DNA from: an uncultured Actinomycetes bacterium
GTDB taxonomy: Bacteria > Actinomycetota > Thermoleophilia > Gaiellales > Gaiellaceae
NCBI GenBank assembly: GCA_963723345.1
Contig: CAVRPZ010000002.1
Span: forward strand, 1,176,522 to 1,200,521
Direction: 5' to 3'
DNA length: 24,000 nucleotides
Position numbers and translations under genes: made by a program. Positions 806-16,811 of the stretch are shown in pieces; positions within the stretch are counted from its first letter, which is position 1, and every line of letters begins with the position of its first letter. The notes under the pieces were generated by a model. That model saw only the letters and a program-made list of their open reading frames with translations. It did not search any database and was not told where the DNA came from.

Positions 806-1035
806 GCGTCTGCAGCGCACGGGGCGGCGTCGTCGATAGGTCACTGGAAGGTCGAACAGCTCGCGGATGCGGTCATTCCGCGCTCCCGTCGGGTGCGCAA
901 GCCCTCGACGGGCAGCCGACTGATGCGCCGCGCGGACGGGGCGTGACAGGTGAAGGCACACGTCGCCTGCGGGTCGCTGCCCGCTGGACTCGGCTTCGTG
1001 CCCACGGCGACGTCGTCGCTCGCCGCCTTGGCGTA

Positions 1036-3107: not shown

Positions 3108-3114
3108 GGAGCGT

Positions 3115-3261
3115 CTAGAGCAGCCGGATCAGGATGTTGACGAGAATCGTGAGGAGGACCGACACCGCGAGGGAGAGCAGCAGGCAGCCGGGCGAGCAGC
3201 CGTAGACGCGAACGCGACTGCCGGCCAACGTCTTCGGGCGAAGCGGATCATGCGGTTCCAC
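3115..3261 (-). CDS. Possible small hydrophobic protein (48 aa, GTG start), too short for the ORF track
   Basis: My own translation gives VEPHDPLRPKTLAGSRVRVYGCSPGCLLLSLAVSVLLTILVNILIRLL*. The C-terminal 25 residues form one clean TM helix. The RBS is weak, an alternative TTG start lies at 3228, and there is no homology evidence. Confidence 0.25.
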   Translation of the reverse strand: MEPHDPLRPKTLAGSRVRVYGCSPGCLLLSLAVSVLLTILVNILIRLL

Positions 3262-3282
3262 TGGACGGACTCACCCGACCCG

Positions 3283-3320
3283 ACCAACCTGCAAACGCCG
3301 CGTGGCGTTTGCAGGTTGGT
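3283..3320 (-). terminator. Intrinsic-terminator-like hairpin closing the minus-strand stress operon
   Basis: Perfect 17-bp inverted repeat accaacctgcaaacgcc / ggcgtttgcaggttggt with a 4-nt loop (gcgt), 58 nt downstream of the stop at 3378. No U-tract, as is common in high-GC actinobacteria. Confidence 0.6.
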
Positions 3321-3377
3321 TCCTTCGGCTTGCGCATCGTTGACTTCACGCCGGCTTGATGGTCGGCGACGTCGCGG

Positions 3378-4358
3378 TTACCGAGGGGTGGCCGAAGGCG
3401 CGGGGCCAGCAGTCGGCGTCTCTCTCGGCGCAACTTCGCGAGCCTTTTCCTGCAGGCTCTCGGACAACTCCTCACCCTCTTCGCGACCGCGTTCCTTCGC
3501 CGTCTCGATGGCTGTCGCGCCGGCCTCCTGCACGACATCTTTCCCGCGCTCGAAAGCTTCCCGTCCCGCGTCCGCCGCCGTCGCTTTCACATCGTCGGCC
3601 ATTGGCCCGATCCGCTCGTCTTCCATGCGAGTGGAGGGCGCGAGCAGGCCCGCGATGAAACCGACCGCTGCACCGCCGATCGCCAGTCCGACCGGGTTCC
3701 TTTCTGCCAGCCGCTTCATGCGATTCATGCTCTGACTGACCTCCGCACCGTCGGGCGTGATCTCGCCTGCCTTCGACGTGACCCCGCTCACCGTCGAGAC
3801 GACGGCGTCCTTCTTCTCCCCGATCCAGTCCTTTGTCCTGGTCGGCACGTCAGCCTTGTACGCGAGCGCGTCGGCGGTCTCGCTCAGCTGGTCGCGGGTC
3901 TGCTCGATCTCGCTCTTCAGCTCGGTCTGATGTGTGAGCCATGCCACATCCTCCTTCACCGATTCGATTGTCTTTTCGGGCACGGGCGTGCCCACGTCCT
4001 GGATCTTGTTGCGGCCGTACAGCGCCAGAGGCACCGCCACGAGCGCCCATAGCCCGGCAACACACAGCGCCGCCGCCCAATTGGGCATCACGCCATCGAG
4101 CGCGAGGATGAGGAACCCCGTGAACGTACCCAGAGCGAGAAGGCCGGCGACTCCCGCCGCGGTGAGTACTGCGACGCCCGCCCCGGCTTTCTTTCCCTTC
4201 TCGGCCAACTCGGCCTTCGCGAGCTCGAGGTTCTCGTTCAGCTCGACCTTCACGAGTTCGATCTCCTGGTGAACCAGGGTGGTCGCCTGATGCGTGAGAT
4301 CCTTGACCAGCTGGACGGTCGAGCGCTGACGGACGACGTCGCCGTCGATGATCGTCAT
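3378..4358 (-). CDS. Membrane protein: Holin-X (actinobacterial phage-holin family, superfamily III) N-terminal domain fused to a DUF3618-like domain
   Basis: 326 aa. The N-terminus (STVQLVKDLTHQATTLVHQEIELVKVEL...) is followed by two TM helices typical of Holin-X. The middle part (EIEQTRDQLSETADALAYKADV) and a third TM (NPVGLAIGGAAVGFIAGLLAP) are typical of DUF3618. The ATG at 4358 abuts the upstream stop at 4359-4361. Confidence 0.8.
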   Translation of the reverse strand: MTIIDGDVVRQRSTVQLVKDLTHQATTLVHQEIELVKVELNENLELAKAELAEKGKKAGAGVAVLTAAGVAGLLALGTFTGFLILALDGVMPNWAAALCVAGLWALVAVPLALYGRNKIQDVGTPVPEKTIESVKEDVAWLTHQTELKSEIEQTRDQLSETADALAYKADVPTRTKDWIGEKKDAVVSTVSGVTSKAGEITPDGAEVSQSMNRMKRLAERNPVGLAIGGAAVGFIAGLLAPSTRMEDERIGPMADDVKATAADAGREAFERGKDVVQEAGATAIETAKERGREEGEELSESLQEKAREVAPRETPTAGPAPSATPR

Positions 4359-4871
4359 CTACGCACCCCCGCTCGTCAGGCTCCGCATCGAAGGCGAGTA
4401 GCCGCTGCCGTTGCTGTGCGCACCCTCGTAGCGGCGGTTGCCCGAGGCCTTCACGAATCGTGAGGCCAGGAGTCCCGCGAGGGCGCCGACGCCCGCCGTG
4501 AGCCAGGGACGCCTTCGGGCGAATCCCTCGATGTCGCCGAGGATCCGGTCGGCCTCCGCGGACTGGAGGTAACCGCCTACATCGTCGGCGCGCCGAGCGA
4601 CCTCCTCGACGACCCTTGCCGGCACATCCTTGCCTTCACTGCGCAGCTGGTTGGCCCCGGACTGGAGGGTCTTTCCGATCGACTGCAGCTGTTCGCCCGC
4701 CTGGGTCGAGCGCTGGTCGAGCTGCTCACGGATCTGGAAGTTGGCCTCTCCGCCCAGCTCATGGGCCTTGGCCGTGATCTGCTCCTGGGCCGCGGAGACG
4801 AGCTCCTCGCCCTTGTCCTTCACTTCTGCTGCAGCCCCACTCGGGTGACTGCCACTCGTTTCAGTCGCCAT
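4359..4871 (-). CDS. Tail-anchored coiled-coil stress protein (ElaB/YqjD/DUF883-like architecture)
   Basis: Start chosen at ATG 4871 (MATETSG...), which has an AAGGAG RBS about 9 nt upstream. The 4964 start in the track adds an Arg-rich junk extension. Long polar helical region, then RRPWLTAGVGALAGLLASRF as a single TM. Confidence 0.7.
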   Translation of the reverse strand: MATETSGSHPSGAAAEVKDKGEELVSAAQEQITAKAHELGGEANFQIREQLDQRSTQAGEQLQSIGKTLQSGANQLRSEGKDVPARVVEEVARRADDVGGYLQSAEADRILGDIEGFARRRPWLTAGVGALAGLLASRFVKASGNRRYEGAHSNGSGYSPSMRSLTSGGA

Positions 4872-5018
4872 GCGCCCTGCTCCTTTCGTCTGAGGTCTTG
4901 GACACCGCTGTCGCGCCCACCGTTGCTTCGTCGCGCGGCGATTCGCCGCCGGCTTGTCGTGCAATGGGGCATGTGCTCGGGGCGAGGGCCCCGAGCACAG
5001 ACCGTGACTGGCGTGCGT

Positions 5019-5303
5019 CTAGCGGTTGTTGAGCGGGTCTTCGCCGCCGGCGTACTTGGTGCCCGACTTGGCGAGGCCGCGGCTGATCATGTAGCCGATC
5101 CCGACCGCGGCGACGAGCGTCCAGGCGCGGACATCGTCGAGTGAGTCGGAGATGGCCGAGGCAGCCAGGATGGCCACGATGAGGCCGGCCATCGCCCAGA
5201 ACTCGGTGGTCTTCAGCGAGTGCTTGGTCTCGTCGGTGGTGCGATCGCCGACGTAGGCCGGTGTCTTCGTGCGCGCCCGCTCAGTGGTTTCCATTGTTGC
5301 CAT
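5019..5303 (-). CDS. Small membrane protein (2 TM), hypothetical
   Basis: 94 aa with two hydrophobic helices (FWAMAGLIVAILAASAI, WTLVAAVGIGYMISRGL). Strong GAGGAGG RBS 7 nt upstream of ATG 5303. Confidence 0.75.
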   Translation of the reverse strand: MATMETTERARTKTPAYVGDRTTDETKHSLKTTEFWAMAGLIVAILAASAISDSLDDVRAWTLVAAVGIGYMISRGLAKSGTKYAGGEDPLNNR

Positions 5304-5808
5304 TGCTGTTCCTCCTCTTGAGGGTCGTATGAGGCGGAGGACTCAAACGAGTCCTCTCGCTACTTGCCGTGCATGGAGCGATGGTTCTTGGCTCGTCGTC
5401 CAGTCGCCTGATTGCGAGAAGACGATCGAAGCCCGTCGCCTCGAACGCAGTCATCGGCGTCTGCGGCCCGACGAGGACGAGCAGCTCGCCCCCGTGCGCC
5501 TGCTGGCGTCGGCTCGCGCCGAGGAGCAGGGCGAGCGTGGTCGCGTCGATGAAAGTGACCATGCGAAGGTCGACGGTCAGGTGGCGCACTTCTGCCAACG
5601 CGTCTTCGATCGCCGGGGCGCGGAAGAGGTCGAGCTCGCCAGCGAGGACGAGGACCGCTGATTCGCTCCCATACCGCTCGAGGGCCAGCGAAAAGTCGGC
5701 TTGCACGGTTCGGGCTTGCGGCAATTCGCTCTCGAGGGCCTCAGCTGGCCTCCAGCCCGCAGCACCTGCTTCGGGCGGAGCGGTGTTGATTTGTTCATGT
5801 CTCATCAC
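5281..5808 (-). CDS. STAS-domain protein (anti-sigma-factor antagonist, SpoIIAA/RsbV family)
   Basis: STAS core AVLVLAGELDLFRAPAIEDAL...LTVDLRMVTFIDATTLALLLG...GGELLVLVGPQTPMTAFEATGFDRLL. GTG 5808 or ATG 5805 start. The 3' end overlaps the next gene by 23 nt. Confidence 0.8.
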   Translation of the reverse strand: MMRHEQINTAPPEAGAAGWRPAEALESELPQARTVQADFSLALERYGSESAVLVLAGELDLFRAPAIEDALAEVRHLTVDLRMVTFIDATTLALLLGASRRQQAHGGELLVLVGPQTPMTAFEATGFDRLLAIRRLDDEPRTIAPCTASSERTRLSPPPHTTLKRRNSNGNNGNH

Positions 5809-5927
5809 GCTGCCACCGTAGCTCAGTTCTGATGAACTATGGCCGATCTGATGAGGTATTTGATGAGGTATTTGGCGAATTATGATGAGAAATATCCGCT
5901 GGCAGCTGGAAGTACTGATGAAGTAAG
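5809..5927. promoter_or_regulatory. AT-rich divergent intergenic region carrying five TGATGA(R) motifs, including an exact 12-bp tandem duplication
   Basis: TGATGA at 5829, 5848, 5860, 5882 and 5915. TGATGAGGTATT is repeated exactly at 5848-5859 and 5860-5871. A TATGAT -10-like hexamer lies at 5880-5885. The region is visibly far more AT-rich than its flanks. Confidence 0.45.
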
Positions 5928-6251
5928 ATGGTCGTCATGCAGCACGGCGAGCTCGCGATCTACAGCATTGGCGCCGTTGAGCGCATGCTCGACGTCCCGG
6001 CCGCGACGATCCGAAACTGGGAAGAGCGCTATGGGCTCGTGAAGCCCGAGCGCAGCAACGGCGGCCATCGGCTCTACACACGCGGACAGGTCGAGCAGCT
6101 CCGCTTCGTCAAGGAGGGACTCGATCGAGGGCTGCAGCCCGCCGAGGCCCATCGCCTGCTCGGCGAGCAGCTCGCGCGCCGCAGCGGCGTTCGCGTCAAC
6201 GGATGCGAGCGAGCAGGCGCCTCGCCTTCTGATCCTGCTCGCCGAGCGTGA
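5928..6251 (+). CDS. MerR-family HTH regulator (LitR/CarH-class DNA-binding domain); probably the N-terminal part of a frameshifted MerR-receiver fusion
   Basis: IYSIGAVERMLDVPAATIRNWEERYGLVKPERSNGGHRLYTRGQVEQLRFV is a MerR wHTH of the same subclass as the LitR at 13086-13967. After about residue 85 the frame yields a featureless tail, while the +1 frame continues into a receiver domain. Confidence 0.8.
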   Translation: MVVMQHGELAIYSIGAVERMLDVPAATIRNWEERYGLVKPERSNGGHRLYTRGQVEQLRFVKEGLDRGLQPAEAHRLLGEQLARRSGVRVNGCERAGASPSDPARRA

Positions 6252-6303
6252 TCCGTACGCGGCCGAGTTCGCCGAGTTCTTCCTCCAGACCGAGGGCTAC
6301 GAG

Positions 6304-6600
6304 GTGGCTCTCGCCCTCGATGCCGATGACGCAGCGCTCAAGCTCGAGCAACGCCTACCCCAGCTTGCGGTGATCGAGCTGCTCATCTCCGGCGGTACGG
6401 GCGCCGATCTGTGCCAGCGTCTGAAGGAAGCCGGAGTGCCTGCGTGCCTGGTGATCTCCACGCTCGACGCGCGCGACCAGGCGCTCGCAGCGGGCGCCGA
6501 CGCCTTTCTGCGGAAGCCACTCGATCCGCTGCAGTTCGTCTCGACCGTCAAGGACTTGCTCGGGAAGAGCGCTTTCCTGCAAGGCGCGACATCGCTATGA
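6304..6600 (+). CDS. Response-regulator receiver-like domain (atypical: Glu at the phospho-acceptor position)
   Basis: Receiver signatures LVISTLD (Thr) and FLRKPLDP (Lys). The first canonical start is GTG 6304, but receiver homology (RLLILLAERDPYAAEFAEFFLQTEGYEV) continues upstream in the same frame to about 6223. There is no ATG/GTG/TTG between 6043 and 6304. The stop TGA (6598-6600) overlaps the next ATG (6597-6599). Confidence 0.7.
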   Translation: MALALDADDAALKLEQRLPQLAVIELLISGGTGADLCQRLKEAGVPACLVISTLDARDQALAAGADAFLRKPLDPLQFVSTVKDLLGKSAFLQGATSL

Positions 6601-7988
6601 GCGAGCGTCTCCTGAGCGGCCATTCCCGCCTCGACGGCGTGCTCGGGGGCGGCCTCCCGGTGGACGCAATCAACATGCTCATCGGGCTTCCGGGAACCGG
6701 CAAGACGATCCTCGCTCAGCAATACCTGTTCGCGAACGCGACGATCGAGCGGCCCGGCTTGTACCTCGCCACGGTGTCGGAACCATTCGACAAGATCCTC
6801 CGCTACGGCCAGAGCCTCCGCTTCTTCGACCCTGGAGCGGTCGGCAACTCGGTCTTCTACGAGGACCTCGGCCCGGCTCTCAACGAGCGCGGCCTCGCCG
6901 GCGTCCTCGAGCAGGTGACCGCGCTGATCAAGGAGCGCCGCCCGGGAATCATCGTGATCGACAGCTTCAAGGCGCTCTCTGCCTACGCGGAGGCTGCCGA
7001 GTTTCGCCGCTTCCTCCACGATTTCGCCGGCCACCTGTCCGCCTTCCCGGCCTCGTCGTTTTGGATCGGCGAGTACGGCGAAGAGGAGATCGCCGTGGCA
7101 CCCGAATTCGCGGTCGCCGACGCCATCATCAGCCTCTCCACGACGCGAGCGTCCGAGCGCGAGACGCGCTCCCTCCGCGTCCTCAAGCTACGGGGAAGCG
7201 AATTCGCTCCCGGCCAGCACGCCTACCGCCTCTCGGCCAACGGGATCGACGTCTTCCCGCGGCTGGCCGACCAGATCGACATGACCAGCTACCCGCTCGA
7301 CGGAGCCAGGCACTCATCCGGGATCGCCGCCCTCGACGACATGCTCGCCGACGGTTACTGGCCCGGCGCCTCCACGCTCTGCGCTGGCCCCTCGGGCTGC
7401 GGCAAGACCCTGATGGGCCTGCACTTCATCTTCAACGGCGTCCGTCAGGGCGAACCCGGTGTGCTGGCGACGCTCCAGGAACACCCGACCCAGCTCGCGC
7501 GGATCGTCGAGGGGTTCGGGTGGTCGGTTGACGAGGAGGGCGTCGAGCTGATGTACCGCTCGCCTGTCGACATGTACATCGACGAGTGGGTCTATGACCT
7601 CCTCGAGACGGTGGAGCGCACCGGAGCACGCCGTGTCCTCATCGATAGCCTCACCGATCTCAAGCTCGCCTCGCCGGACGAGATCCGGTTCCGCGAATAC
7701 ATGTACTCGCTCGTCCAGCGCTTCTCCCGCCAGGGAGTCAGCGTGTTCATGACCTCGGAGCTACCAGACCTCTTCCACGTGAGGCGACTCTCCGAGTTCG
7801 GCGTCTCACACCTCTCCGACAACGTCGTGCTCCTCCAATACACCCGCGACCAAGCAACCGTTCGGCGCGCCCTCACCGTCTTGAAGACGCGCGCAAGCCG
7901 ACACGAACCGGAAACCCGCGAGTTCAGAATCACTCCCGAAGGGATCGTGCTCGGTGACCCGTTCATCCCTGCACAAAGGTTCGACTAG
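6597..7988 (+). CDS. KaiC-like double-domain RecA-superfamily ATPase
   Basis: 463 aa with two tandem KaiC/RecA-like domains. Walker A motifs are GLPGTGKT (6684-6707) and GPSGCGKT (7386-7409); Walker B-like motifs are GIIVIDSF and RRVLIDSL. The domain ends LKLRGSEF...Y.LS..GI.VFPR and LKTRASRHE...REF.ITPEGI are typical of KaiC-family proteins. The 6411 start in the track is an off-target extension through the receiver gene. Confidence 0.9.
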   Translation: MSERLLSGHSRLDGVLGGGLPVDAINMLIGLPGTGKTILAQQYLFANATIERPGLYLATVSEPFDKILRYGQSLRFFDPGAVGNSVFYEDLGPALNERGLAGVLEQVTALIKERRPGIIVIDSFKALSAYAEAAEFRRFLHDFAGHLSAFPASSFWIGEYGEEEIAVAPEFAVADAIISLSTTRASERETRSLRVLKLRGSEFAPGQHAYRLSANGIDVFPRLADQIDMTSYPLDGARHSSGIAALDDMLADGYWPGASTLCAGPSGCGKTLMGLHFIFNGVRQGEPGVLATLQEHPTQLARIVEGFGWSVDEEGVELMYRSPVDMYIDEWVYDLLETVERTGARRVLIDSLTDLKLASPDEIRFREYMYSLVQRFSRQGVSVFMTSELPDLFHVRRLSEFGVSHLSDNVVLLQYTRDQATVRRALTVLKTRASRHEPETREFRITPEGIVLGDPFIPAQRFD

Positions 7989-8025
7989 CACGAACCGCGC
8001 GACAGGTAGGCGGACGAGCGCGCAC

Positions 8026-9144
8026 GTGCACGTCACCGACCTGCTCCTGCTGGAGGAACTCCACGCCCAGTTGCCGGTCGGCTTGCTCGTCAACGACGCC
8101 GACACGCTCGAGATCCTCCACGCCAGCCCCCCACTTCCGGGTTTCGCCGGTCACGACCTGCCGCTCGATCAGCTGATCCAATCGCACAAGGACGAACGCC
8201 AGCCGCTCGGCCAAGCAGATGAACTGGCGGCACTCGTCGCAGACGTAGCCGCGACCGGAAGGCCGCGTCACCTACGCGAGTTCCGTCACGACTCCCCAGG
8301 GCAGGAGCCGAACTGGTGGAGCGCAACCCTCCGTCGCATCGACACCGACCGCTGGGGCCCAGTCGTAGTCACGCTCGCGGTCGACACGACCGACCAGGTT
8401 CGCGCCCGGCATCTCCTGGAGGAGCGCGAACGGCGGCACGTGGCCCTGCAGCAAGAGATCGCCGCCGTTCCCGGCCACAACCTCGTCTCCTCCCTCCAGC
8501 AGGTTGCCGATGCCCTCGTCCCCGCCCTACAGGCCGACGTAGCCACGATCCGACTGCTCGGCGCAGACGCCAAGCTCCACCTCGTCGCCGCTAGCGGCCT
8601 TCGCCCCGCCGAGACTCGACGCCTCGCCCTGGACCCGATCACCCTACGCCGGCTCGAGACGATGATCGAAAGCGGGCCGCCGACAGCCCTCGGATCGCTC
8701 GGCCTCCACTGGGTCGAGGTGCGGTGGCTCGAGGCCGGCGGCAAACGGATCGGGATTCTGACGATCGGTGCGCGCAGCAAGCGGCGTCCGCCCGAGGACG
8801 ACCTCACGCTGCTCAACGCCGCATCAGTGCAGCTCGGCCACGCCCTGGAGAACATCGAGCGGAGCCCGCAGTTCCTTCGAAGCCGTTCTCTCGAGGTGGC
8901 CCGCGTGAACACGGACGTAGGCGAGGCCGCGCAAGCCCGCAGCGCCGACCTCCGCCCACGCGAGCTCGCGATTCTCCGCCTCTACGGCGAAGGACTCCGA
9001 ACAGATCAAGTCGCCGAACTACTCGTTCTCTCCCCGCACACAGTCCGGACACACGTGAGGAACGCCCGCCGCCGCCTTGGCGTCAGCTCCCGAGCCGAGG
9101 CACTCGACCTTCTCAAAGCTGCCGAGGCCGATCCCTCTGTGTGA
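8026..9144 (+). CDS. PAS-GAF-LuxR (HTH) transcriptional regulator
   Basis: N-terminal PAS-like fold (LPVGLLVNDADTLEILHAS...WWSATLRRI...VVVTLAVDTTDQV). Central GAF (LQQVADALVPALQADVATIRLL...LHLVAASG...RIGILTIGAR...LLNAASVQLGHALEN). C-terminal LuxR HTH (LRPRELAILRLYGEGLRTDQVAELLVLSPHTVRTHVRNARRRLGV). Start is uncertain: GTG 8026 is preferred because ATG 7954 would overlap kaiC-like by 35 nt and add a low-complexity extension. Confidence 0.8.
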   Translation: MHVTDLLLLEELHAQLPVGLLVNDADTLEILHASPPLPGFAGHDLPLDQLIQSHKDERQPLGQADELAALVADVAATGRPRHLREFRHDSPGQEPNWWSATLRRIDTDRWGPVVVTLAVDTTDQVRARHLLEERERRHVALQQEIAAVPGHNLVSSLQQVADALVPALQADVATIRLLGADAKLHLVAASGLRPAETRRLALDPITLRRLETMIESGPPTALGSLGLHWVEVRWLEAGGKRIGILTIGARSKRRPPEDDLTLLNAASVQLGHALENIERSPQFLRSRSLEVARVNTDVGEAAQARSADLRPRELAILRLYGEGLRTDQVAELLVLSPHTVRTHVRNARRRLGVSSRAEALDLLKAAEADPSV

Positions 9145-9199
9145 CCGACGGAAGAGATCGCTGCTCCCTGACTCATCGGTAGGTTCTCCTGCAGAAGTC

Positions 9200-9940
9200 A
9201 TGACCCGTCTGCGCTCCGGCAACCTCGCCCTCGCCGCACTCCATGGCGGCCAGGCCGTCTTGATCGTCGTCCTCGGGGCGACGCTTGCGATACCGATCAC
9301 GGCGCAGTGGGCGGACGGCCCGCCGGGTTCCGCGCTCGGCCCGACGGAGACGCTCTTCGACCTCCCGGTGCGCTGGTGCGTGGCCGCGTTCCTGTTGCTG
9401 GCGGCGTTGGATCACCTGCTCGTCGCCTCGCCGGGAGTCGTGTCCTGGTACGAGCGGAACCTCCGCCGCGGGATCAACTACGCGCGCTGGATCGAGTACT
9501 CCTTCAGCGCCTCGCTGATGGTCGTCCTGATCGCTGCGTTCGCGGGCGTCACCGATCTCCGTGCGCTCGTGGCCGTCGCGGGTGTCAACGCCGCGATGAT
9601 CCTCTTCGGGCTCCTCATGGAGCGCACGAACGTGGGCCGCGATCGGCCCGACTGGCTGCCGTTCTGGTTCGGATGCATTGCCGGCGCGGTCCCGTGGATC
9701 GTCATCGGGATCTCGCTCGTCGGGGCGGAGATCGACGGGAGTGTGCCCGGCTTCGTGTGGGCGATCTTCGTCTCCCTGTTCCTGTTCTTCAACTGCTTCG
9801 CGGTCAACATGTGGCTGCAGTACCGCCGGATCGGCGCCTGGCGCAGCTACGTGTTCGGCGAGTGGGGCTACCTGGTTCTCAGCCTCACCGCGAAGAGCGC
9901 GCTCGCCTGGCAGATCTACGCCGGCGCGCTCGCGAGCTGA
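9200..9940 (+). CDS. Heliorhodopsin (retinal-binding, inverted-topology 7TM photoreceptor)
   Basis: 246 aa. Blocks match my recollection of the founding heliorhodopsin 48C12: GPPG; NYARWIEYSFSASLMVVLIA (counterion Glu, codon 9494-9496); LPFWFGCIAGAVPWI; VPGFVWAIFVSLFLFFNCFAV; LVLSLTAKSALAWQIYAG (Schiff-base Lys, codon 9893-9895). Both conserved His residues are present (AALHGGQ, ALDHLLV). ATG 9200 is chosen; the 9077 start overlaps the LuxR gene. Confidence 0.9.
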   Translation: MTRLRSGNLALAALHGGQAVLIVVLGATLAIPITAQWADGPPGSALGPTETLFDLPVRWCVAAFLLLAALDHLLVASPGVVSWYERNLRRGINYARWIEYSFSASLMVVLIAAFAGVTDLRALVAVAGVNAAMILFGLLMERTNVGRDRPDWLPFWFGCIAGAVPWIVIGISLVGAEIDGSVPGFVWAIFVSLFLFFNCFAVNMWLQYRRIGAWRSYVFGEWGYLVLSLTAKSALAWQIYAGALAS

Positions 9941-10178
9941 GTCGGCGACGTCGAGCTGGCGCCCGCGCCCGGTCGACACGGCAGTTCACGTGGCACTCGG
10001 TCGCTCGGTCGGGTTCTGCTGAGCTGGGCCGAACTCACGGCCCGCAGCGGCGAGCGCCAAGAGCCTCCTCGAGTCGGCTGGTACTGTGGTGGCGATCGCA
10101 GGAATCAGAGCGAGTACCGGTCTTGGCTTAACACGCCTTCCGCTGCACGTTCATGAAGCAGTCGAAGGAGGTGGAGAT

Positions 10179-10391
10179 ATGCCAACCGGAACCGTGAAGT
10201 GGTTCAACGACGACAAGGGCTACGGCTTCGTGTCGCCGGACGACGGGAGCAAGGACGTCTTTGTTCACCACAGCGCGATCGGCGGCGAGGGGTTCAAGAG
10301 CCTCGCCGAGGGCGCGAAGGTGGAGTACGAGGTCGAGCAGGGCCCGAAGGGCCCGCAGGCGCGCAGCGTCAGCGTCGTCGCGTCGGTCTGA
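10179..10391 (+). CDS. cspA: Cold-shock protein (CspA family)
   Basis: [34 protein letters not shown] carries the RNP1/RNP2 motifs. GAAGGAGGTGGA RBS directly upstream of ATG 10179. Confidence 0.95.
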
Positions 10392-10397
10392 GCTCGT

Positions 10398-10426
10398 GGG
10401 GCGCACCGCCGTAGGCGGTGCGCCCC
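10398..10426 (+). terminator. Intrinsic-terminator-like hairpin after csp
   Basis: Perfect 13-bp stem ggggcgcaccgcc / ggcggtgcgcccc with a 3-nt loop, starting 7 nt after the csp stop codon. No T-tract. Confidence 0.7.
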
Positions 10427-10534
10427 CGTCTCACTTCGAGCCAGGGCTCGAGCGAGCTGCACGGAAGGTCGACGTGGACGGCGCCGAAGTGCCCGCCACG
10501 CGGATCGAGCGGAAGGAGCTGTGCCATCGCCGAC

Positions 10535-11650
10535 ATGGGGCCGCTGGGGAGCGCCTCCCCGCCGAAGCTCTCGTTCGACAACGGCGGCGACTTCATCAAG
10601 CAGACGCGCCGCGAGGTCGAGGAGTATCTCTCTGCCCGGCGTACCCGGGTGCGCGGACGCGTCGAGCTGTATGCCAAAGGGATCGTCGCGTTCGTCGTCC
10701 TGTCCGCGTCGTGGCTGACGCTCGTGCTCGGCCAACCCGGCCCGTGGCTCGGTCTCGTCAGCTTCGGCGGGCTGATCCTCGGCACCTCGCTCATCGCGTT
10801 CTGCGTGATGCACGACGCCAATCACGGCGCCTATTTCCGGACACGCCGGCTGAACCACCTGATGGGCTGGACGGCCGATGTGCTACTCGGGCTCTCGAGC
10901 TACGCCTGGCGCGTGAAGCACAACGTCGCCCATCACACCTATACGAACGTCGACGGCTACGACGCCGACATCACGCAGGTGCCGTTCGCGCGACTGACGC
11001 CCGTGCAGGCACCCCGTCCCTGGTACCGGCTGCAGCACTACTACATCTGGGCGCTGTACTGCGTGATGGCGCTCCGCTGGCAGACCGTCGGCGACGTCGC
11101 CGCATTGGCCCGGGGAAGCATCGGGACGAGCGCGTTGCGCATGCCGCGCCGCTGGGATCTCGCCGGCCTCGTCGGTGGGAAGGTGATCTTCGTCGGGTGG
11201 GCGATCGTCGTGCCGATGCTCGTCTATCCGTGGTGGGCAGTCCTCTGCGGCTATCTCGTCTACTCGATGGTCGTGAGCCTGATCATGGCCGTGACCTTCC
11301 AGCTCGCACACTGCGTCGAGGAAGCCGACTTCGCCTCGGCCGAGGAGCTCGCCAGCGAGCGGCGGCTCTGGGCGGTGCACGAGGTCGAGACGACGGTCGA
11401 CTTCTGCCCGCGCAACCCGGTGCTCGGCTGGGTGGTCGGCGGCCTCAACTACCAGATCGAGCACCACCTGTTTCCTCGGGTGCCGCACACGCACTACGCG
11501 CACATCGCCACGATCGTCCAGCGGAACGCCGAGCGACACGGTGTCCGCTACGTCACCCAGCGCTCGCTGCGCTCGGCCCTCCGGTCGCACTTCCGGCACC
11601 TGCGCACGATGGGCAGGAGGGGCGTCCCGGTCGCACTCGAGATGGGCTGA
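10535..11650 (+). CDS. Membrane fatty-acid desaturase (Delta6/front-end-desaturase-like, no cytochrome b5 domain)
   Basis: Three histidine boxes, HDANHG, HNVAHH and QIEHH, with TM segments in the canonical arrangement. ATG 10535 (MGPLGSASPPKLSF...) is chosen; the upstream part of the 10418 ORF runs through the csp terminator. Confidence 0.9.
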   Translation: MGPLGSASPPKLSFDNGGDFIKQTRREVEEYLSARRTRVRGRVELYAKGIVAFVVLSASWLTLVLGQPGPWLGLVSFGGLILGTSLIAFCVMHDANHGAYFRTRRLNHLMGWTADVLLGLSSYAWRVKHNVAHHTYTNVDGYDADITQVPFARLTPVQAPRPWYRLQHYYIWALYCVMALRWQTVGDVAALARGSIGTSALRMPRRWDLAGLVGGKVIFVGWAIVVPMLVYPWWAVLCGYLVYSMVVSLIMAVTFQLAHCVEEADFASAEELASERRLWAVHEVETTVDFCPRNPVLGWVVGGLNYQIEHHLFPRVPHTHYAHIATIVQRNAERHGVRYVTQRSLRSALRSHFRHLRTMGRRGVPVALEMG

Positions 11651-11695
11651 GCTCCCGTCGGGAACCGGGCCGCTCGGGCGGGGCGACGGGATCGG

Positions 11696-12583
11696 TCAGC
11701 CGGCCATGGAGCCACTCGAGAGAGCAGCACGTGCGGCGTCCTCGAAAGAGGTGAGCGGGAACGGGAGCAGAGCGCGCAGACGATCGTCGCGTACGACCGT
11801 CGGGTTGCGAAGACCTTCGATCAACGGGCGCGCGACACCCGCCCTCACCGGCGTGACGAGGTGGAGCCAATACGAGGAGAGCCTGGGGCTCAGCACGGGC
11901 ACCTCGACGATGAGACGCCGCCGGCCGCGGATGTGCGCGATCCGCTCGATCATCTCCTTGTAGCTGAGCACGTCCGGACCGCCGACGTCGAAGCTCTGAC
12001 CCCGGGCCTCGGGCATGCGCGCGACCCCGACGAGGTAACGGACGACGTCCGCCAGGGCGATGGGCTGGGTGGGCGTCGACACCCATCTCGGCGCGATCAT
12101 CGCCGGCAGCCGGTCGACGAGCGAGACGATCGTCTCGAAGGCGGCGCTGCCACGGCCGATCACGACGGCCGCGCGCAGCGTCGTAAGCGGAACGGCGCCG
12201 GACGAGAGCGCAACGGCCGTCTCGAGCCTGCTTCGCAGGTGCGGCGACAGGTCGGGCCGGTCGTCGCCGAGGCCTCCGAGGTACACGAGCTGGGAGACAC
12301 CTGCGTGTTCGGCTTCGCGGGCGACCGTCTCGGCTGCTCGGCGATCGACCACCGCGTAGTCCGGAGTCCCCAGGGAGTGGACGAGGTAGTACGCCACCTC
12401 GACGCCCTCGAGCGACCGGCGGACCGATGTGGAGTCAGTGACGTCGGCAGCGATCGGCCGTACACCCTCGACCGGCGAGGCATCGGGTCTCCGCGAGACG
12501 GCGACCACCTCCTCGGAACGGGCGAGGGCCGAGACGAGGGCCGTGCCGACCACGCCCGACGCTCCCAGCACCGCGACCGTCAC
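11696..12583 (-). CDS. NAD(P)H-binding protein, NmrA-like/atypical SDR family
   Basis: N-terminal Rossmann motif VAVLGASGVVG, 295 aa, typical NmrA/YbjT-like length. The GTG start at 12583 overlaps the upstream stop (GTGA). Confidence 0.85.
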   Translation of the reverse strand: MTVAVLGASGVVGTALVSALARSEEVVAVSRRPDASPVEGVRPIAADVTDSTSVRRSLEGVEVAYYLVHSLGTPDYAVVDRRAAETVAREAEHAGVSQLVYLGGLGDDRPDLSPHLRSRLETAVALSSGAVPLTTLRAAVVIGRGSAAFETIVSLVDRLPAMIAPRWVSTPTQPIALADVVRYLVGVARMPEARGQSFDVGGPDVLSYKEMIERIAHIRGRRRLIVEVPVLSPRLSSYWLHLVTPVRAGVARPLIEGLRNPTVVRDDRLRALLPFPLTSFEDAARAALSSGSMAG

Positions 12584-13089
12584 GAATGTGCCTCGGCGAT
12601 GAGTCGGGCGAAGTAGCGCCGGCTGATCGCCGCATGGAGTCGCTGCTGCGCGAATCCGAGCGTCGCTCCCAGCCGTGGTACGAACTCGGTCACCTCCGCG
12701 CGCAGCTCGACGTCCACGGCGCCGACCTGCGACAGGGCCAGCGAGCCGCCCTCTCGGCGCGCGAGCACGCCACCGCGGATCGGGTAGGTGCAGCTCACCC
12801 GCTCGTCCCCGACGGACGTCTCGGCAGGCCCGAAGCTGAGGAGGGCCGGGCCTCGTCCCAGCAGGCGCAGCTCGACTCCCTCCGTCTCCTGGCGGCAGCG
12901 GACCAGTCCCCGGCTGGCGCGCACTGCTTCGCGCCAGTATCGCTGCCCGAGGGCTCTTGCCCCCGAATCCGATCGCTCGACGACGGGCCGGGCGGAGCTC
13001 GCGCGCTGGACGGACGCGTAGGTCCCGTCCTCGCTCCTCGTCTGCACGGAGCTCCAGGCTTCGAGGCGGCGGGGCACGCGAGGGCTCAC
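12580..13089 (-). CDS. Hypothetical protein (169 aa), translationally coupled between the litR-like and NmrA-like genes
   Basis: The C-terminal ~120 aa has protein-like composition (YWREAVRASRGLVRCRQETEGVELRLLGRGPALLSFG...YPIRGGVLARREGGSLAL...FAQQRLHAAISRRYFARLIAE). GTG 13089 overlaps the litR stop (GTGA) and the stop overlaps the next GTG (GTGA). I do not recognise the family. Alternative GTG starts lie 12 and ~39 nt downstream. Confidence 0.6.
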   Translation of the reverse strand: MSPRVPRRLEAWSSVQTRSEDGTYASVQRASSARPVVERSDSGARALGQRYWREAVRASRGLVRCRQETEGVELRLLGRGPALLSFGPAETSVGDERVSCTYPIRGGVLARREGGSLALSQVGAVDVELRAEVTEFVPRLGATLGFAQQRLHAAISRRYFARLIAEAHS

Positions 13090-13967
13090 TCCGAGTGGAG
13101 AAGAGCGGTCACCCGCTCCGCCTCCCGGACCGGATCGTCGGTCAGCGCGAGCGCATCGAGGCCCGTCGTTCGGAGGCCTTCGGCTCCGGCGCCGCCCACT
13201 GCGAGCCGCCGCTGGCGCGCGATCTGTCGGAGGTCCGCGGCGAGCTCTCCAACCCGCTCCGGCGTCACGGAGCTCACGACGACGAGATCGACGTCGAGGG
13301 ACTCGGCGACGCCCCGGATGGTGTCGAGGGGGGTGTCCGCTCCGAGGTACTCGACCCGCCACCCGTGCGTGCGCAGTGCGAGACCGAAGGCGAGGAGGCC
13401 GAGCTCGTGCTGCTCTCCCGGGGCGCAGGCAAGGAGCGCGCGGGGACCCAGTCCCCGTCCCCAGCCCCGGGCGATTCCGAGCAGACGACCGCGAACGATG
13501 TTGGATGCGAAGTGCTCCTGCGCCACCGTGACCTCGCCACGCTCCCACCGGGCTCCGAGGTCGCGCAGGTACGGCATGACGATCTCGGAGAGGAACACGT
13601 CGAGTGTGACCTCTGCGAGGAGTCGGTCGAAGATCGCGTGTGCACGAGGCTCGTCGAACCCCTCGAGCGCGGCCGCGAGCTGGCCGACGGCGGCCATCGA
13701 CGACGCACGAGCGGTGGCGACCTGTGTGCTCTCGCCGGGGCCGCGTACCGCCGCAGCGGCAGCCTCGGCGGCGGCCAGCCCGTCTGCCAGGTGCTGCTGC
13801 ATGACGCGGACGCGCTCGAGATCGGCCAGCGAATAGAGGCGGAGGCCTCCGGGCGAGCGGATGGGCTCGAGCAAGCCGTAGCGGCGTTCCCAGGCGCGAA
13901 GCAGCTCGGGGCTGACTCCCGAGCGTCGGCTCAGCTCGCCGATCCGCAGCTGCGCTGGCTCTGACAT
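13086..13967 (-). CDS. litR: CarH/LitR-type MerR-family regulator with B12-binding domain (adenosylcobalamin-dependent light sensor)
   Basis: 293 aa. MerR wHTH (LRIGELSRRSGVSPELLRAWERRYGLLEPIRSPGGLRLY). Four-helix-bundle motif W-x9-EH (WERGEVTVAQEH, nt 13512-13547). Cobalamin-binding E-x-H-x-x-G (GEQHELG, His codon 13407-13409), then VVSSV and VGGAG. The 14339 start in the track is a junk extension through the intergenic region. Confidence 0.9.
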   Translation of the reverse strand: MSEPAQLRIGELSRRSGVSPELLRAWERRYGLLEPIRSPGGLRLYSLADLERVRVMQQHLADGLAAAEAAAAAVRGPGESTQVATARASSMAAVGQLAAALEGFDEPRAHAIFDRLLAEVTLDVFLSEIVMPYLRDLGARWERGEVTVAQEHFASNIVRGRLLGIARGWGRGLGPRALLACAPGEQHELGLLAFGLALRTHGWRVEYLGADTPLDTIRGVAESLDVDLVVVSSVTPERVGELAADLRQIARQRRLAVGGAGAEGLRTTGLDALALTDDPVREAERVTALLHSE

Positions 13968-13971
13968 GCCC

Positions 13972-14004
13972 CAAATATACAGAATCTGTACGAAACCTTG
14001 ACAA
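13972..14004 (+). promoter_or_regulatory. Candidate CarH/LitR operator: three tandem 11-bp direct repeats matching nAnnTnnACAn
   Basis: DR1 13972-13982 cAaaTatACAg; DR2 13983-13993 aAtcTgtACGa; DR3 13994-14004 aAccTtgACAa. DR3 covers the TTGACA -35 of the plus-strand promoter. The array also spans a minus-strand TATATT (13974-13979) 6 nt upstream of the litR ATG and contains the palindrome TACAGAATCTGTA (13978-13990). Confidence 0.5.
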
Positions 14005-14027
14005 GAACATCCGGCCGGTGGTACTGT
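13998..14027 (+). promoter_or_regulatory. Sigma-70-like promoter for the DUF378/fasciclin genes
   Basis: TTGACA (13998-14003), 18-nt spacer, TACTGT (14022-14027) preceded by TGG. It lies about 40 nt upstream of ATG 14067, which has a GGAGGTG RBS. Confidence 0.45.
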
Positions 14028-14066
14028 GCCGCATCTGAACAAATCATTGACAGGAGGTGAACAGCA

Positions 14067-14315
14067 ATGAAGAAGATTGACCTGCTCGCTGCAGTGCTCG
14101 TCCTGGTCGGCGCCCTCAACTGGGGTCTCGTGGCGATCGCCGAGTTCGATCTCGTCGCGACGGTCTTCGGCATGGAGTTCGGCGAGACCAACGCCGCGAG
14201 CCGGATCGTCTACGGGCTCGTCGGCCTGGCCGGCGTCTACGGCGTCGTCTCGCTGGCGACTCGACGTTCGGCCGCCGCGACCCTCCCCGCAAGGACCTCG
14301 TCGGCCTCGCACTGA
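14067..14315 (+). CDS. DUF378 domain-containing membrane protein
   Basis: MKKIDLLAAVLVLVGALNWGLVAIAEFDLVATVFG...SRIVYGLVGLAGVY is the characteristic DUF378 two-helix signature. Confidence 0.9.
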   Translation: MKKIDLLAAVLVLVGALNWGLVAIAEFDLVATVFGMEFGETNAASRIVYGLVGLAGVYGVVSLATRRSAAATLPARTSSASH

Positions 14316-14356
14316 CGGAACACACCACCGCACACACACGAGAAAGGACTATCGAC

Positions 14357-14854
14357 ATGAGAAATGCACGCTTCATCCTCGCGCTGCTCGCCGTCGCGGC
14401 GGTTGCCGCTGCTGCGATGGGAGCGTCTGCTTCCGCGAACACCAGCAAGGAAGGGGACGTCGTCTCGACGGCCGCCGGCGCGGGCAACTTCACGACGCTC
14501 ACCTCGCTCCTGAAGAAGGCGGGCCTCGTCGGCGCGCTCCAGGCCAAGGGGCCGTTCACCGTCCTCGCCCCGACCGACGCGGCCTTCGCGAAGGTGCCCA
14601 AGTCGACTCTCGCAGCGCTCGGCGCCGATCGGGCGAAGCTCAGGTCGGTGCTCAAGTACCACGTGATCGCCGGCAAGGTTCCTGCGGCGAAAGTGGTCAA
14701 GCTGCGCTCGGCAAAGACGCTCAACGGGCAGGCTGTCCGGATCCGCGTCGTCGAAGGCAAGGTCTTCGTCGGTGGCGCACGGGTGGTGAAGACGGACATC
14801 GCTGCATCGAACGGCGTCATTCATGCCATCAACCAGGTGCTGATCCCTCGCTAG
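14357..14854 (+). CDS. Secreted fasciclin (FAS1) domain protein
   Basis: Signal peptide (MRNARFILALLAVAAVAAAAMGASASA) followed by a FAS1 domain (FTTLTSLLKKAGL...GPFTVLAPTDAAF...LKYHVIAGKV...ASNGVIHAINQVLIP). Confidence 0.9.
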   Translation: MRNARFILALLAVAAVAAAAMGASASANTSKEGDVVSTAAGAGNFTTLTSLLKKAGLVGALQAKGPFTVLAPTDAAFAKVPKSTLAALGADRAKLRSVLKYHVIAGKVPAAKVVKLRSAKTLNGQAVRIRVVEGKVFVGGARVVKTDIAASNGVIHAINQVLIPR

Positions 14855-14865
14855 GCGAGGGGTGC

Positions 14866-14901
14866 GCCGACCGCCCGGCGCTGACGCGCCGGGCGGTCGG
14901 C
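14866..14901 (+). terminator. Intrinsic-terminator-like hairpin after the fasciclin gene
   Basis: Perfect 16-bp stem gccgaccgcccggcgc / gcgccgggcggtcggc with loop tgac, beginning 12 nt after the stop codon. Confidence 0.7.
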
Positions 14902-15137
14902 TCGCGACGGCTCTGCATGAACGAGTTCTTGCGGGATGTCTCCTGGACACCTCCACGTTCTTTCTCGCGCTCGCGTGGGACTCCGTCCAGGATGGAGCGG
15001 TGCGAGCTCCACGCGATCGACGACGGAGAGCGACTGCTCGTATTCGATCCGCTGGCCCTGCCGAGCGAGCTCGAGGGGTCTAGGGCCAGCGCGCTGCTCG
15101 CGGGGGCCAAGAGGGCCACGCGCTTACGTCGAGATGT

Positions 15138-15350
15138 TCAGCGAAGCGCGCGCAGATGCCGAACGTGGCCGACATGTTTCGCAAGGCGCAGACGCTCGAC
15201 GCTCAGCGTCCTGAGCTCTCGCATGTCGGCCTTGTTCAGCGCCGGCCAATCACGGAAGAGACGCGTCATGCGCTCGTCGCGGCATTGCCTTGCCTGCCGA
15301 ATCTGCTCGTGGTCGAGCTCGGACAGGTTCTTGGGAAGGCCTTCGATCAT
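15138..15350 (-). CDS. Hypothetical protein (70 aa)
   Basis: MIEGLPKNLSELDHEQIRQARQCRDERMTRLFRDWPALNKADMRELRTLSVERLRLAKHVGHVRHLRALR. Strong GGGAGGAGG RBS 6 nt upstream of ATG 15350. Helical, charged, protein-like composition; no family recognised. Confidence 0.55.
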   Translation of the reverse strand: MIEGLPKNLSELDHEQIRQARQCRDERMTRLFRDWPALNKADMRELRTLSVERLRLAKHVGHVRHLRALR

Positions 15351-15372
15351 TGTTCGACCTCCTCCCGGGCGA

Positions 15373-15564
15373 CTACGACGCGCCGAAACCGCGTGGCACA
15401 CCCCTCGGGCGCCTGTCGAGTCCCAACCACTTCCGGATCTTTGCGGCCAAGCTGCGTGTGACCTGCATGAGAACCTCACCTGTTCCGCCGCTCGGCGCAA
15501 TGGCCGGAACGGTCAGAGCGGAGGAGAGGCTCGGGATCTCATCGTAGCCGCCCTGGCCCGGCAT
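15373..15564 (-). CDS. Possible hypothetical protein (63 aa from ATG 15564; 80 aa if GTG 15615)
   Basis: ORF directly upstream of, and co-directional with, the 15350 gene. GGAGA sits 3-4 nt upstream of ATG 15564. Composition is only moderately protein-like; no homology recognised. Confidence 0.3.
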   Translation of the reverse strand: MPGQGGYDEIPSLSSALTVPAIAPSGGTGEVLMQVTRSLAAKIRKWLGLDRRPRGVPRGFGAS

Positions 15565-15664
15565 CGTCTCCGTGACGCGTGAGCTGCCCTGCGCCAGGCA
15601 CAGCACCTCCTCCACGCCCTGATAGCGTCGGTGGTCGTCGGCGAACGAACGCGGAGGCTCCCCG

Positions 15665-15940
15665 GTGAACCCCGACCCGGACTTGACACAGCTCTATACA
15701 GCTGCTCGACGGGCAAGCGAAGAGTTGGTCAAGCGCCTGGAGGTCTACGAGGAGCTCGTGCCGGCGCGAGCGAACGAGGCGGCTGTGGCCGACGAGGTCG
15801 TGGAGTTCACGCGGTTCGCGGAACGACAGTTCAGGGGCTGGTACGAGCGCTGCCGCGATCTCCGCGAGATGCTCGAGGATCCCGCACTACGCGCACCTCC
15901 CGGTTCGCGCGCGCCTGACGCCGACCCTCGGGGCGAGTAG
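15665..15940 (+). CDS. Hypothetical protein (91 aa)
   Basis: GTG 15665 with GGAGG (15653-15657) 7 nt upstream. Helical, acidic sequence (LYTAARRASEELVKRLEVYEELV...FTRFAERQFRGWYERCRDLREMLEDP). No family recognised. Confidence 0.55.
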   Translation: MNPDPDLTQLYTAARRASEELVKRLEVYEELVPARANEAAVADEVVEFTRFAERQFRGWYERCRDLREMLEDPALRAPPGSRAPDADPRGE

Positions 15941-16142
15941 GGCTCTCCGGCGCAAACGGGCCGCGTTGCGCTCGTTTCGCGCGGAAGGCCACGCGCTCGT
16001 CGGCGGGCGCACGAGGACAGGCACCCCGACCAGGGCTCGACGACGTCCCTGATACCCTGGTTCGCACACAGCTCCCTCCTCCGCTGCTGCTCTCACTTCG
16101 AGTCGCGCCAGGTCTGAGCCTGACAGGGAGGAGAATTTCTTC

Positions 16143-16355
16143 GTGGCACGTTCTCTCACCGAAGCGCTCACCGAAACCGCACGAGCGCCGGTGGGGGTGC
16201 GTGATTGGGAGCGCGACCAGGAGGCATGGAACCTCCCGCGAGCCCGAGGAGGCTCGCTCGCTCGCGAGGCGGGCAAGGCAGGAGCCGAGCCAGGGGAGGG
16301 CGATCCTGGTGAGCGAGGGTCCGATCCCCCGGTAGCACCGGGCACGACGGAGTGA
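16143..16355 (+). CDS. Possible hypothetical protein (70 aa)
   Basis: GTG 16143 with GGGAGGAG (16125-16132) 10 nt upstream. The C-terminal half is low-complexity. The stop overlaps a downstream GTG (GTGA), which supports coupling. Confidence 0.35.
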   Translation: MARSLTEALTETARAPVGVRDWERDQEAWNLPRARGGSLAREAGKAGAEPGEGDPGERGSDPPVAPGTTE

Positions 16356-16456
16356 CCGGGATCGTCGTCTTCGCCGTGGGCTTCGCCGTGGGTCTCTGTG
16401 CCCTCGGAGCATGGACGTTCGCTCGTGTTCGGCGACGGGACTCGCGGCGCTGGTGA
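16352..16456 (+). CDS. Possible 34-aa single-TM micropeptide
   Basis: My own translation gives V/MTGIVVFAVGFAVGLCALGAWTFARVRRRDSRRW*. This is one clean TM helix followed by a positive cluster. GTG 16352 overlaps the upstream TGA (GTGA). Too short for the ORF track. Confidence 0.3.
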   Translation: MTGIVVFAVGFAVGLCALGAWTFARVRRRDSRRW

Positions 16457-16472
16457 CGGTGCGGGCGCCTCG

Positions 16473-16811
16473 ATGACGACCCAGGACGACCGTGCCGTGG
16501 ACGGCCAAATACGCCTCCTGCGCGGCCGGTTCGAGGCACAGTTCGACGACTTGGACGCCGCCAGGGCGGCGGCCCGCGACACGCGCGCGGTCGGGTTCGT
16601 CACCGACGTGCTGCAAGACATCCAGGGATGGCTCATCGTCGGCAGGCGCCAACTTCCCTTCCCGGCAGACGAGCGCGACCGCTACGCAAGTCGTCTGCAC
16701 GAGATCGCGAAACGACATGGCGGCGCCTACAAGCAGTTCGTTGCAGACCCGCCCGACACCCTGGCGACACCAGGGCAACGAGATCTGCGAGAGGAGACGG
16801 ATGAAGAGTAA
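16473..16811 (+). CDS. Hypothetical protein (112 aa)
   Basis: ATG 16473 (MTTQDDRAVDGQIRLLRGRFEAQFDDLDAARAAARDTRAVGFVTDVLQDIQGWLIVGRRQLPFPADERDRYASRLHEIAKRHGGAYKQF...). Protein-like composition; the 3' end overlaps the next ATG by 11 nt. No family recognised. Confidence 0.55.
   Translation: MTTQDDRAVDGQIRLLRGRFEAQFDDLDAARAAARDTRAVGFVTDVLQDIQGWLIVGRRQLPFPADERDRYASRLHEIAKRHGGAYKQFVADPPDTLATPGQRDLREETDEE

Follow-up and report, generated by a model that had tools for sequence, protein, structure and literature searches.

The window analysed here, a stretch of 24,000 nucleotides (24 kb) on contig CAVRPZ010000002.1 of an uncultured Actinomycetes bacterium, encodes at positions 9200-9940 of the forward strand an intact, typical bacterial heliorhodopsin (HeR) and not a type-1 rhodopsin. 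As an explanation of the whole, we consider it highly probable that this is a standard bacterial HeR, a slow-cycling light sensor or regulator encoded by a free-standing gene with its own promoter. The product would be a seven-helix membrane protein with a cytoplasmic N-terminus that binds all-trans retinal via K232 and has E99 as its single counterion. Judging by its characterised relatives, it would most likely modulate partner proteins in a slow photocycle and not pump ions. The gene sits in a highly mosaic region, beside but not demonstrably inside the light regulon of a vitamin-B12-dependent CarH/LitR regulator.

Identity, fold and key residues

The open reading frame (ORF) at 9200-9940 on the plus strand encodes 246 aa plus stop and is free of internal stops. 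The protein matches the Pfam family PF18761 over the whole profile (positions 1-242 of 242, E = 5.3e-96, 321 bits against a cut-off of 26.7) and the NCBIfam HeR equivalog model NF038020 with 299 bits (cut-off 100). In the Pfam search, no match to the type-1 microbial rhodopsin family PF01036 was found at E ≤ 1. Among solved structures, the best sequence matches found with phmmer are the entries of heliorhodopsin 48C12 (PDB 6su3/6uh3, E ~6e-63), with the HeR of a Thermoplasmatales archaeon (TaHeR) ranking second (E ~2e-56). Over 237 aligned residues, 47% are identical to 48C12.

An earlier reading of the letters without database searches (the sequence-only reading) had called the gene a bona fide heliorhodopsin, and the full-length family matches, the fold match described below and the presence of all key residues uphold this call. 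The four peptide blocks that it had set against 48C12 were all found, and the 48C12 side of each is as it was quoted (phmmer alignment to 6su3/6uh3). The profile search that it had suggested as a check matched the HeR family models and not the type-1 model.

Alignment to 48C12 maps the Schiff-base lysine to K232 (K241 of 48C12, in helix G; codon 9893-9895, plus strand) and the counterion glutamate to E99 (E107, in helix C; codon 9494-9496, plus strand), which lies within the motif RWIEY. The counterion role of this glutamate in HeRs has been described (PMC9385722). Two conserved histidines are H15 (H23 of 48C12; codon 9242-9244, plus strand) and H72 (H80; codon 9413-9415, plus strand), and lysine and glutamate are thus at the codons named by the sequence-only reading, with both histidines present as it had stated. 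By the same mapping, R96, E141 and S228 correspond to R104, E149 and S237. Among the 115 closest database relatives, these functional residues vary little or not at all: the lysine is present in 115 of 115, the glutamate is likewise invariant, and the histidines are kept in 114 (H72) and 105 (H15). At three positions, A68, A104 and M204 replace S76, S112 and Q213 of 48C12. Because these are the majority states among the 115 relatives, we regard them as traits of the clade and not as peculiarities of this gene.

The residues of the lateral fenestration, as listed in a 2025 preprint (10.1101/2025.11.27.691015), are encoded between 9662 and 9802 on the plus strand. All are identical to those of 48C12, with F155, C159, G162, F197, N198 and A201 corresponding to F162, C166, G169, F206, N207 and A210. 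Five of these pairs come from the alignment mapping, and G162 was read by eye from the 48C12 alignment.

An AlphaFold2 (AF2) model built from a 33-sequence alignment has a mean pLDDT of 91 and a pTM of 0.86, and consists of seven long helices, a beta-hairpin in the A-B loop (strands 30-35 and 50-56) and a short helix in the B-C loop. When this model was compared with the PDB using Foldseek, every heliorhodopsin entry ranked first (TM-score 0.89-0.93, root-mean-square deviation ~2 Å; 0.91-0.93 and 1.9-2.1 Å for 6su3, 6is6 and 9ljj), whereas the best type-1 rhodopsin structures reached only 0.6-0.68, at 9-17% identity. The topology analysis used the helices of the model, as simple hydropathy segmentation fused some helices and overlooked others. 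The loops on the side of the N-terminus carry 11 Lys and Arg residues and those on the opposite side none, which in the modelled structure indicates a cytoplasmic N-terminus and with it the inverted orientation by which the HeR family is defined. This charge bias agrees with the expectation of the sequence-only reading that the N-terminus is inside. Pairwise dN/dS against eight relatives is 0.09-0.17, and thus the gene is under purifying selection.

The closest known system is 48C12 itself, from a freshwater actinobacterial fosmid (PDB 6su3, 6su4, 6uh3, 9ljj). The two proteins share their length class, the R-W-x-E-Y motif, the helix-G lysine, the H23/H80 and R104/E149 pairs, the equivalent of S237, all six fenestration residues and, in the model, the fold (TM-score 0.91-0.93). 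They differ in the three substitutions (A68 for S76, A104 for S112, M204 for Q213) and in the host, which here is of a Gaiellales-type soil lineage and not from freshwater. TaHeR (PDB 6is6, 7u55) has the same fold (TM-score 0.92) and matches with E = 2e-56, but is archaeal and ~43% identical to the protein of the window; binding of Zn and of chloride has been described for TaHeR.

Proton transport by some viral HeRs, a result cited in passages of PMC12873467 and PMC11109279, raises the alternative of a light-driven ion transporter or channel in place of a sensor. We consider this very improbable. The protein is 47% identical to 48C12, and the residues of the Schiff-base cavity and of the fenestration are common to both. 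The work of Pushkarev and colleagues of 2018 is said to have found no transport by bacterial HeRs of the 48C12 type. The transporting viral subfamily, moreover, is without the fenestration motif (10.1101/2025.11.27.691015), which is present here.

The HeR gene and its flanks

We compared the window with 163 loci around HeR relatives by blastn and tblastn, covering 10 kb on each side (loci are denoted by L and a number). The nearest relatives of the HeR are L084, a soil-type metagenome contig whose HeR is 95.8% identical in DNA and 96.7% in protein, and then L004, L007 and L086. The unit conserved in close relatives is small. Based on the blastn break-points in L084, L086, L088, L004 and L007, it spans 9155-9972 on the plus strand and comprises the HeR ORF with its upstream and downstream margins. 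Similarity to these five loci starts 28-45 bp before the ATG and stops 15-30 bp after the stop codon, and the nucleotide identity of the gene is 92-96% for the four of the five that were measured. Within the upstream margin, the hexamer TAGGTT (9180-9185, plus strand), 14 nt before the ATG, is unchanged in the window and in all five loci despite differing upstream genes. We suggest that it is a candidate -10 element of the HeR gene, which would then be free-standing with a short promoter of its own. A scan of 5700-14500 with sigma-70 and terminator consensus patterns gave no promoter and one terminator-like site, no more than expected by chance.

Outside this unit the gene order changes between close relatives. 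In L084 the order is PNPOx, aldo/keto reductase, HeR, cold-shock protein (Csp) and desaturase, and positions 810-9155 of the window are absent. This 8.3-kb segment carries a broken GH65 gene, holin-X/DUF3618, STAS, MerR-REC, KaiC-like and LuxR-type genes. Between PNPOx and HeR, L084 has in its place 1.3 kb (1327-2629 of L084) with the aldo/keto reductase gene. Neither flanking repeats nor mobile-element genes were seen at the segment, and scans of the window detected neither an Rfam family nor a tRNA nor repeats on either side of it. Downstream, L086 and L087 carry HeR, a GYD protein, a CarH operator with DUF378 and then the pobA-pca genes, without the segment that runs from Csp to LitR in the window. 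L004 has DUF1295, HeR, two glycosyltransferases starting from a CarH-type operator, and then Csp. In L003, HeR is flanked by unrelated genes and TerC.

In several relatives from the Thermoleophilia, HeR lies directly downstream of an amine oxidase-DUF1365-cyclopropane-fatty-acid-synthase (CMAS)-DUF1295 cluster. This cluster is found upstream of HeR in L001, L002, L005 and L011 (~3900-9900), and genes of the set lie at 172-939 in L004, 9583-9900 in L007 and 4899-6896 in L063, as well as in L021. Such a set belongs to photo-oxidative-stress regulons in other bacteria. Its position beside HeR is a hint that HeR is found among light or stress genes.

The genes immediately upstream in the window suggest another reading, in which HeR is the light input of a MerR-REC/KaiC-like/PAS-GAF-LuxR module (5928-9144), is co-transcribed with it and signals to it. 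All four genes are on the plus strand, only 55 bp separate the stop of the LuxR-type gene (9144) from the HeR start, and the stop of MerR-REC overlaps the start of the KaiC-like gene (ATGA, 6597-6600), which points to an operon upstream. This arrangement is not kept in the relatives. No homologue of the KaiC-like or LuxR-type gene lies within 10 kb of HeR in the 163 related loci, and in L084, at 95.8% nucleotide identity, PNPOx and aldo/keto reductase genes precede HeR directly instead. The absence of 810-9155 from L084 places the module in a lineage-specific segment. The block upstream of HeR, furthermore, is conserved whatever gene precedes it. We therefore rejected the KaiC-like and PAS-GAF-LuxR proteins as HeR partners, given the lack of homologues near HeR and the lineage-specific 8.3-kb segment; the module is probably unrelated to HeR, and a signalling link between them has very little to recommend it.

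None of the results contradicts the HeR assignment, which is as firm as predictions from sequence and structure allow. Three points weigh against the reading of the gene as a free-standing sensor with its own promoter. Retinal binding, the lack of ion transport and the sensory role are extrapolations from 48C12, TaHeR and other studied HeRs. The promoter assignment has the conserved hexamer TAGGTT as its sole basis. Finally, none of the neighbours of HeR is conserved, so that there is no protein to name as its partner.

Chromophore supply and the CarH/LitR neighbour

The sequence-only reading had noted that genes for retinal synthesis are missing around HeR. This holds: among the ~50 ORFs across the window, the Pfam scan found no match to phytoene synthase, phytoene desaturase, lycopene cyclase, polyprenyl synthase, Blh or RPE65-type oxygenase. 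The membrane desaturase at 10418-11650, the only gene with even a remote relation to such enzymes, was considered as a carotenoid ketolase or hydroxylase and rejected by the models for these, with 31 bits against a cut-off of 475 for CrtR and 20 against 350 for CrtW. Such an absence is normal and published as the rule for the family; it is not specific to this locus. Of 381 genomes with HeR as the only rhodopsin (HeR-only genomes), one had a complete retinal pathway, while 55% had a beta-carotene monooxygenase and 63% a candidate retinol dehydrogenase (Bulzu et al. 2021, bioRxiv 10.1101/2021.02.01.429150). SDR genes near HeRs were proposed as possible retinol dehydrogenases in the same study. 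The host of TaHeR is also thought to lack retinal synthesis, and the fenestration has been proposed to let such hosts capture external retinal (PMC9385722). This proposal has since been extended to exogenous xanthophylls, with the fenestration conserved family-wide (2025 preprint, 10.1101/2025.11.27.691015). As is usual in the family, the HeR of the window would have to obtain its retinal through genes at another place in the genome or else from outside the cell, via the conserved lateral fenestration.

A LitR-type regulator, as the sequence-only reading had also recognised, is encoded 3.1 kb downstream of HeR at 13086-13967 on the minus strand (293 aa, with MerR_1, B12-binding_2 and B12-binding domains). 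Its best NCBIfam match is CarH, over the full length, at 156 bits and thus below the equivalog cut-off of 400. By its sequence the protein has a CarH-like architecture, yet it is not an equivalog by this model. The translation contains RAWERRY in the recognition helix, W-x9-EH and EQHELG. The motifs RxWERRY, Wx9EH and D/ExHxxG are signatures of adenosylcobalamin (AdoCbl)-dependent CarH photoreceptors, whose operators consist of three or four tandem 11-bp repeats with TnnACA that overlap promoter elements (PMC9304148).

A search of the whole window for triple repeats of this kind (nAnnTnnACAn) gave exactly two sites, each with one mismatch in 15 specified positions, where 0.01 are expected by chance. 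The looser published CarH consensus identified the same region only, and across both consensus searches the chance expectation is 0.01-0.14 per window. Both putative operators lie within the 99-bp gap (13968-14066) between litR and the divergent DUF378 gene. The first (13973-14003, plus strand) has three tandem repeats, the third of which contains TTGACA. The second (14033-14063, plus strand), also of three tandem repeats, is just upstream of DUF378 and is conserved upstream of DUF378 in L086 and L087. Because both lie between litR and DUF378, LitR looks like a classical autoregulated repressor. On the minus strand, a TATATT closely precedes the ATG of litR, a hint that litR is transcribed without a leader. 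The apparent targets would be litR itself, a 167-aa ORF, an NAD-binding protein and DUF378-fasciclin, with no carotenoid genes among them. LitR resembles CarH/LitR of Thermus thermophilus, Bacillus megaterium and Myxococcus xanthus in its MerR helix-turn-helix (HTH) motifs, in tandem 11-bp TnnACA operators placed over TTGACA and in the divergent promoter, but differs from them in the lack of carotenoid genes among its apparent targets and in its score of 156 bits against 400.

Whether HeR is light-induced through LitR had been raised by the sequence-only reading, and for the window the answer is mostly negative. The canonical operators are confined to the divergent promoter region of litR, at 13973-14063, where they face litR and DUF378. 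Neither the strict nor the loose consensus found a CarH operator upstream of HeR, of Csp or of the MerR-KaiC module, the conserved 40 bp upstream of HeR contain no TnnACA repeats, and TGTACA palindromes occur at chance level only.

A regulon link can nevertheless be argued from the wider set of loci. In it, AdoCbl-bound LitR would repress HeR in the dark, directly or via a neighbouring transcript, and light would relieve the repression. A B12 photoreceptor would then gate a retinal photoreceptor, and an SDR-type enzyme for the supply or recycling of retinal may be under the control of LitR as well. In addition to the 3.1-kb distance in the window, CarH/LitR homologues lie 0.14-3.3 kb from HeR in eight of the 163 related loci (L063, 8897-11188; L104, 727-3524; L018, L037, L049, L055, L064 and L081), whose hosts include Solirubrobacterales, Iamiaceae, Acidimicrobiaceae (Acidimicrobiia), a metagenome-assembled genome (MAG) from the Chloroflexi and others. 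Two of these loci are arranged in ways typical for targets of LitR. In L063, litR and HeR stand in tandem; an operator-like site separates an SDR gene (7377-8468) from litR, and another separates HeR from fasciclin. In L104, litR and an epimerase/DUF1731 gene are transcribed divergently, and HeR comes directly after the latter. Operator-like repeats are seen near the LitR-HeR genes in L063 and L049. In the window, L004 and L086/L087, operators that match the strict triple-repeat pattern are found 0.7-4 kb downstream of HeR, compared with 0-1 hits (about 0.2) in controls made from 2 Mb of block-shuffled HeR loci.

SDR/NmrA-like genes recur with both LitR and HeR. Homologues of the NAD(P)-binding epimerase/NmrA-like gene adjoin HeR in L002, L005, L033, L037, L055, L104 and L132 (at ~2000-2860 in L002 and L005, and at 1827-2708 in L104). 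This recurrent neighbour agrees with the operon survey of Cho et al. 2024 (PMC11109279), in which MerR-family and SDR genes are frequent neighbours of HeR and SDR genes form a group of their own, and with the proposal by Bulzu et al. 2021 that such genes may encode retinol dehydrogenases.

Set against this are the position of the operators in the window and the 155 of the 163 loci in which LitR is not nearby. We estimate that eight loci are several-fold above the chance level for one or two CarH genes per genome, an estimate in which the genomic background was assumed and not measured and the loci were not de-replicated. Overall, control of HeR by LitR, direct or through a neighbouring transcript, seems to us unlikely, although clearly less so than a link to the KaiC-like module or a transport function. 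We hold with the same reserve the broader proposition that the CarH/LitR regulon of Thermoleophilia, Acidimicrobiia and some Chloroflexota recurrently includes HeR, along with an SDR/NmrA-like oxidoreductase by which retinal could be made or recycled.

Published HeR operons fall into ten neighbour groups, including glutamine synthetase, photolyase, ABC transporter, MerR-family, SDR and TerC (Cho et al. 2024, PMC11109279). The window and its relatives have neighbours of the MerR family (here CarH/LitR), SDR-like neighbours and TerC. Unlike in those operons, HeR in the window is in an operon with none of them; the SDR-like gene and LitR are encoded on the other strand, at 1.8-3.1 kb from HeR. 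The MerR neighbours of Cho et al. 2024 are not described as B12 photoreceptors: the main text mentions neither 'cobalamin' nor 'CarH', and the supplements contain no text on MerR or B12 (PMC11109279). In the literature searched, nothing relevant was found that combines heliorhodopsin with LitR or CarH, and this association is the only part of our results that goes slightly beyond the literature found.

Gene content, relatives and meaning

The remaining genes were mapped from Pfam and NCBIfam scans of the ~50 ORFs. At the start of the window, a PNPOx-like gene (296-805, plus strand) is followed by a GH65 glycosidase gene (~1036-3107, minus strand) broken over three frames. The frames of this gene, of the maltose/trehalose phosphorylase type, overlap, and its central catalytic domain is interrupted near 1710-1750; it is either a pseudogene or the product of assembly indel errors. 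Next are holin-X/DUF3618 (3378-4358, minus strand) and STAS (5281-5808, minus strand). The upstream module, all on the plus strand, consists of a MerR HTH gene that continues into a receiver domain (REC) after a frame break near 6200-6230 (5928-6600), a two-domain KaiC-like ATPase (6597-7988), whose ATG overlaps the preceding stop, and the PAS-GAF-LuxR regulator (7954-9144). The receiver domain past the frame break has no start codon of its own, and the break could be an assembly indel or mark a real pseudogene.

Directly downstream of HeR is a pair (10093-11650) of a cold-shock protein (10179-10391, plus strand) with a leader of ~95 nt and, 27 bp after it, a membrane protein of the fatty-acid-desaturase family (10418-11650, plus strand). 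The pair is also present in L084, and Csp alone in L004; its two genes would suit a role in cold or in membrane fluidity. A TACTGT hexamer upstream of Csp resembles one in the litR-DUF378 region. On the minus strand, the NAD(P)-binding epimerase/NmrA-like protein of the SDR superfamily (11696-12583; Pfam NAD_binding_10 and Epimerase) is encoded by the last gene of the apparent litR operon, which also contains the 167-aa ORF without a family (12583-13086) and litR. On the plus strand are DUF378, a small membrane protein and likely direct LitR target (14067-14315; Pfam DUF378, 72 bits), and fasciclin (14357-14854; E = 2e-38). The following ~2.1 kb (14855-17015) are without a recognisable gene: no ORF has a family match and the codon-position GC signal is inconsistent. 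The matching interval of L086 is ~1.3 kb and has no detectable similarity. From 17016 on, the minus strand carries pobA and the pca (beta-ketoadipate) genes. This protocatechuate/beta-ketoadipate cluster (17016-23353) looks complete, with a pobA-like hydroxylase, pcaC/D (CMD plus alpha/beta hydrolase), pcaB (Lyase_1), pcaG/H and pcaI/J, and is syntenic with L086 at 82-84% DNA identity.

In a large protein collection, the HeR has its closest matches at 85-89% identity; those that carry a name are from Gaiellaceae MAGs. Among representative genomes, the nearest HeR loci belong to Gaiellales, Gaiellaceae and Thermoleophilia MAGs. Going by these nearest relatives, the host group is the Actinomycetota, which are monoderm, as expected of a HeR host; the G+C content of the window is 63-75%. 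An exact-sequence look-up in public assemblies returned no identical record of the HeR, which is therefore a new sequence variant within a well-populated clade of a well-known family. More than 3,800 HeR relatives were found at E ≤ 1e-10 among only the 8,000 candidates scored. With HeRs numbering in the thousands in public data, a single new member matters little by itself, and the source of its chromophore is a standing published question for the whole family, not one specific to this window.

Of wider use is the behaviour of the locus. In this Gaiellales-type lineage, HeR is a self-contained cassette whose flanks are reshuffled between close relatives, which cautions against inferring HeR function from any one neighbourhood, for example from the KaiC/LuxR genes here. 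With respect to LitR, in at least nine loci (the window and the eight above) the MerR-family genes beside HeR are bona fide CarH/LitR genes of the B12-photoreceptor type with recognisable operators nearby. If the regulon link is true, a B12 photoreceptor would switch on a retinal photoreceptor together with its chromophore supply; in the window, the link would be indirect or run through a non-canonical site. The LitR-HeR neighbourhood thus offers a concrete and testable idea of how HeR expression may be tied to light.

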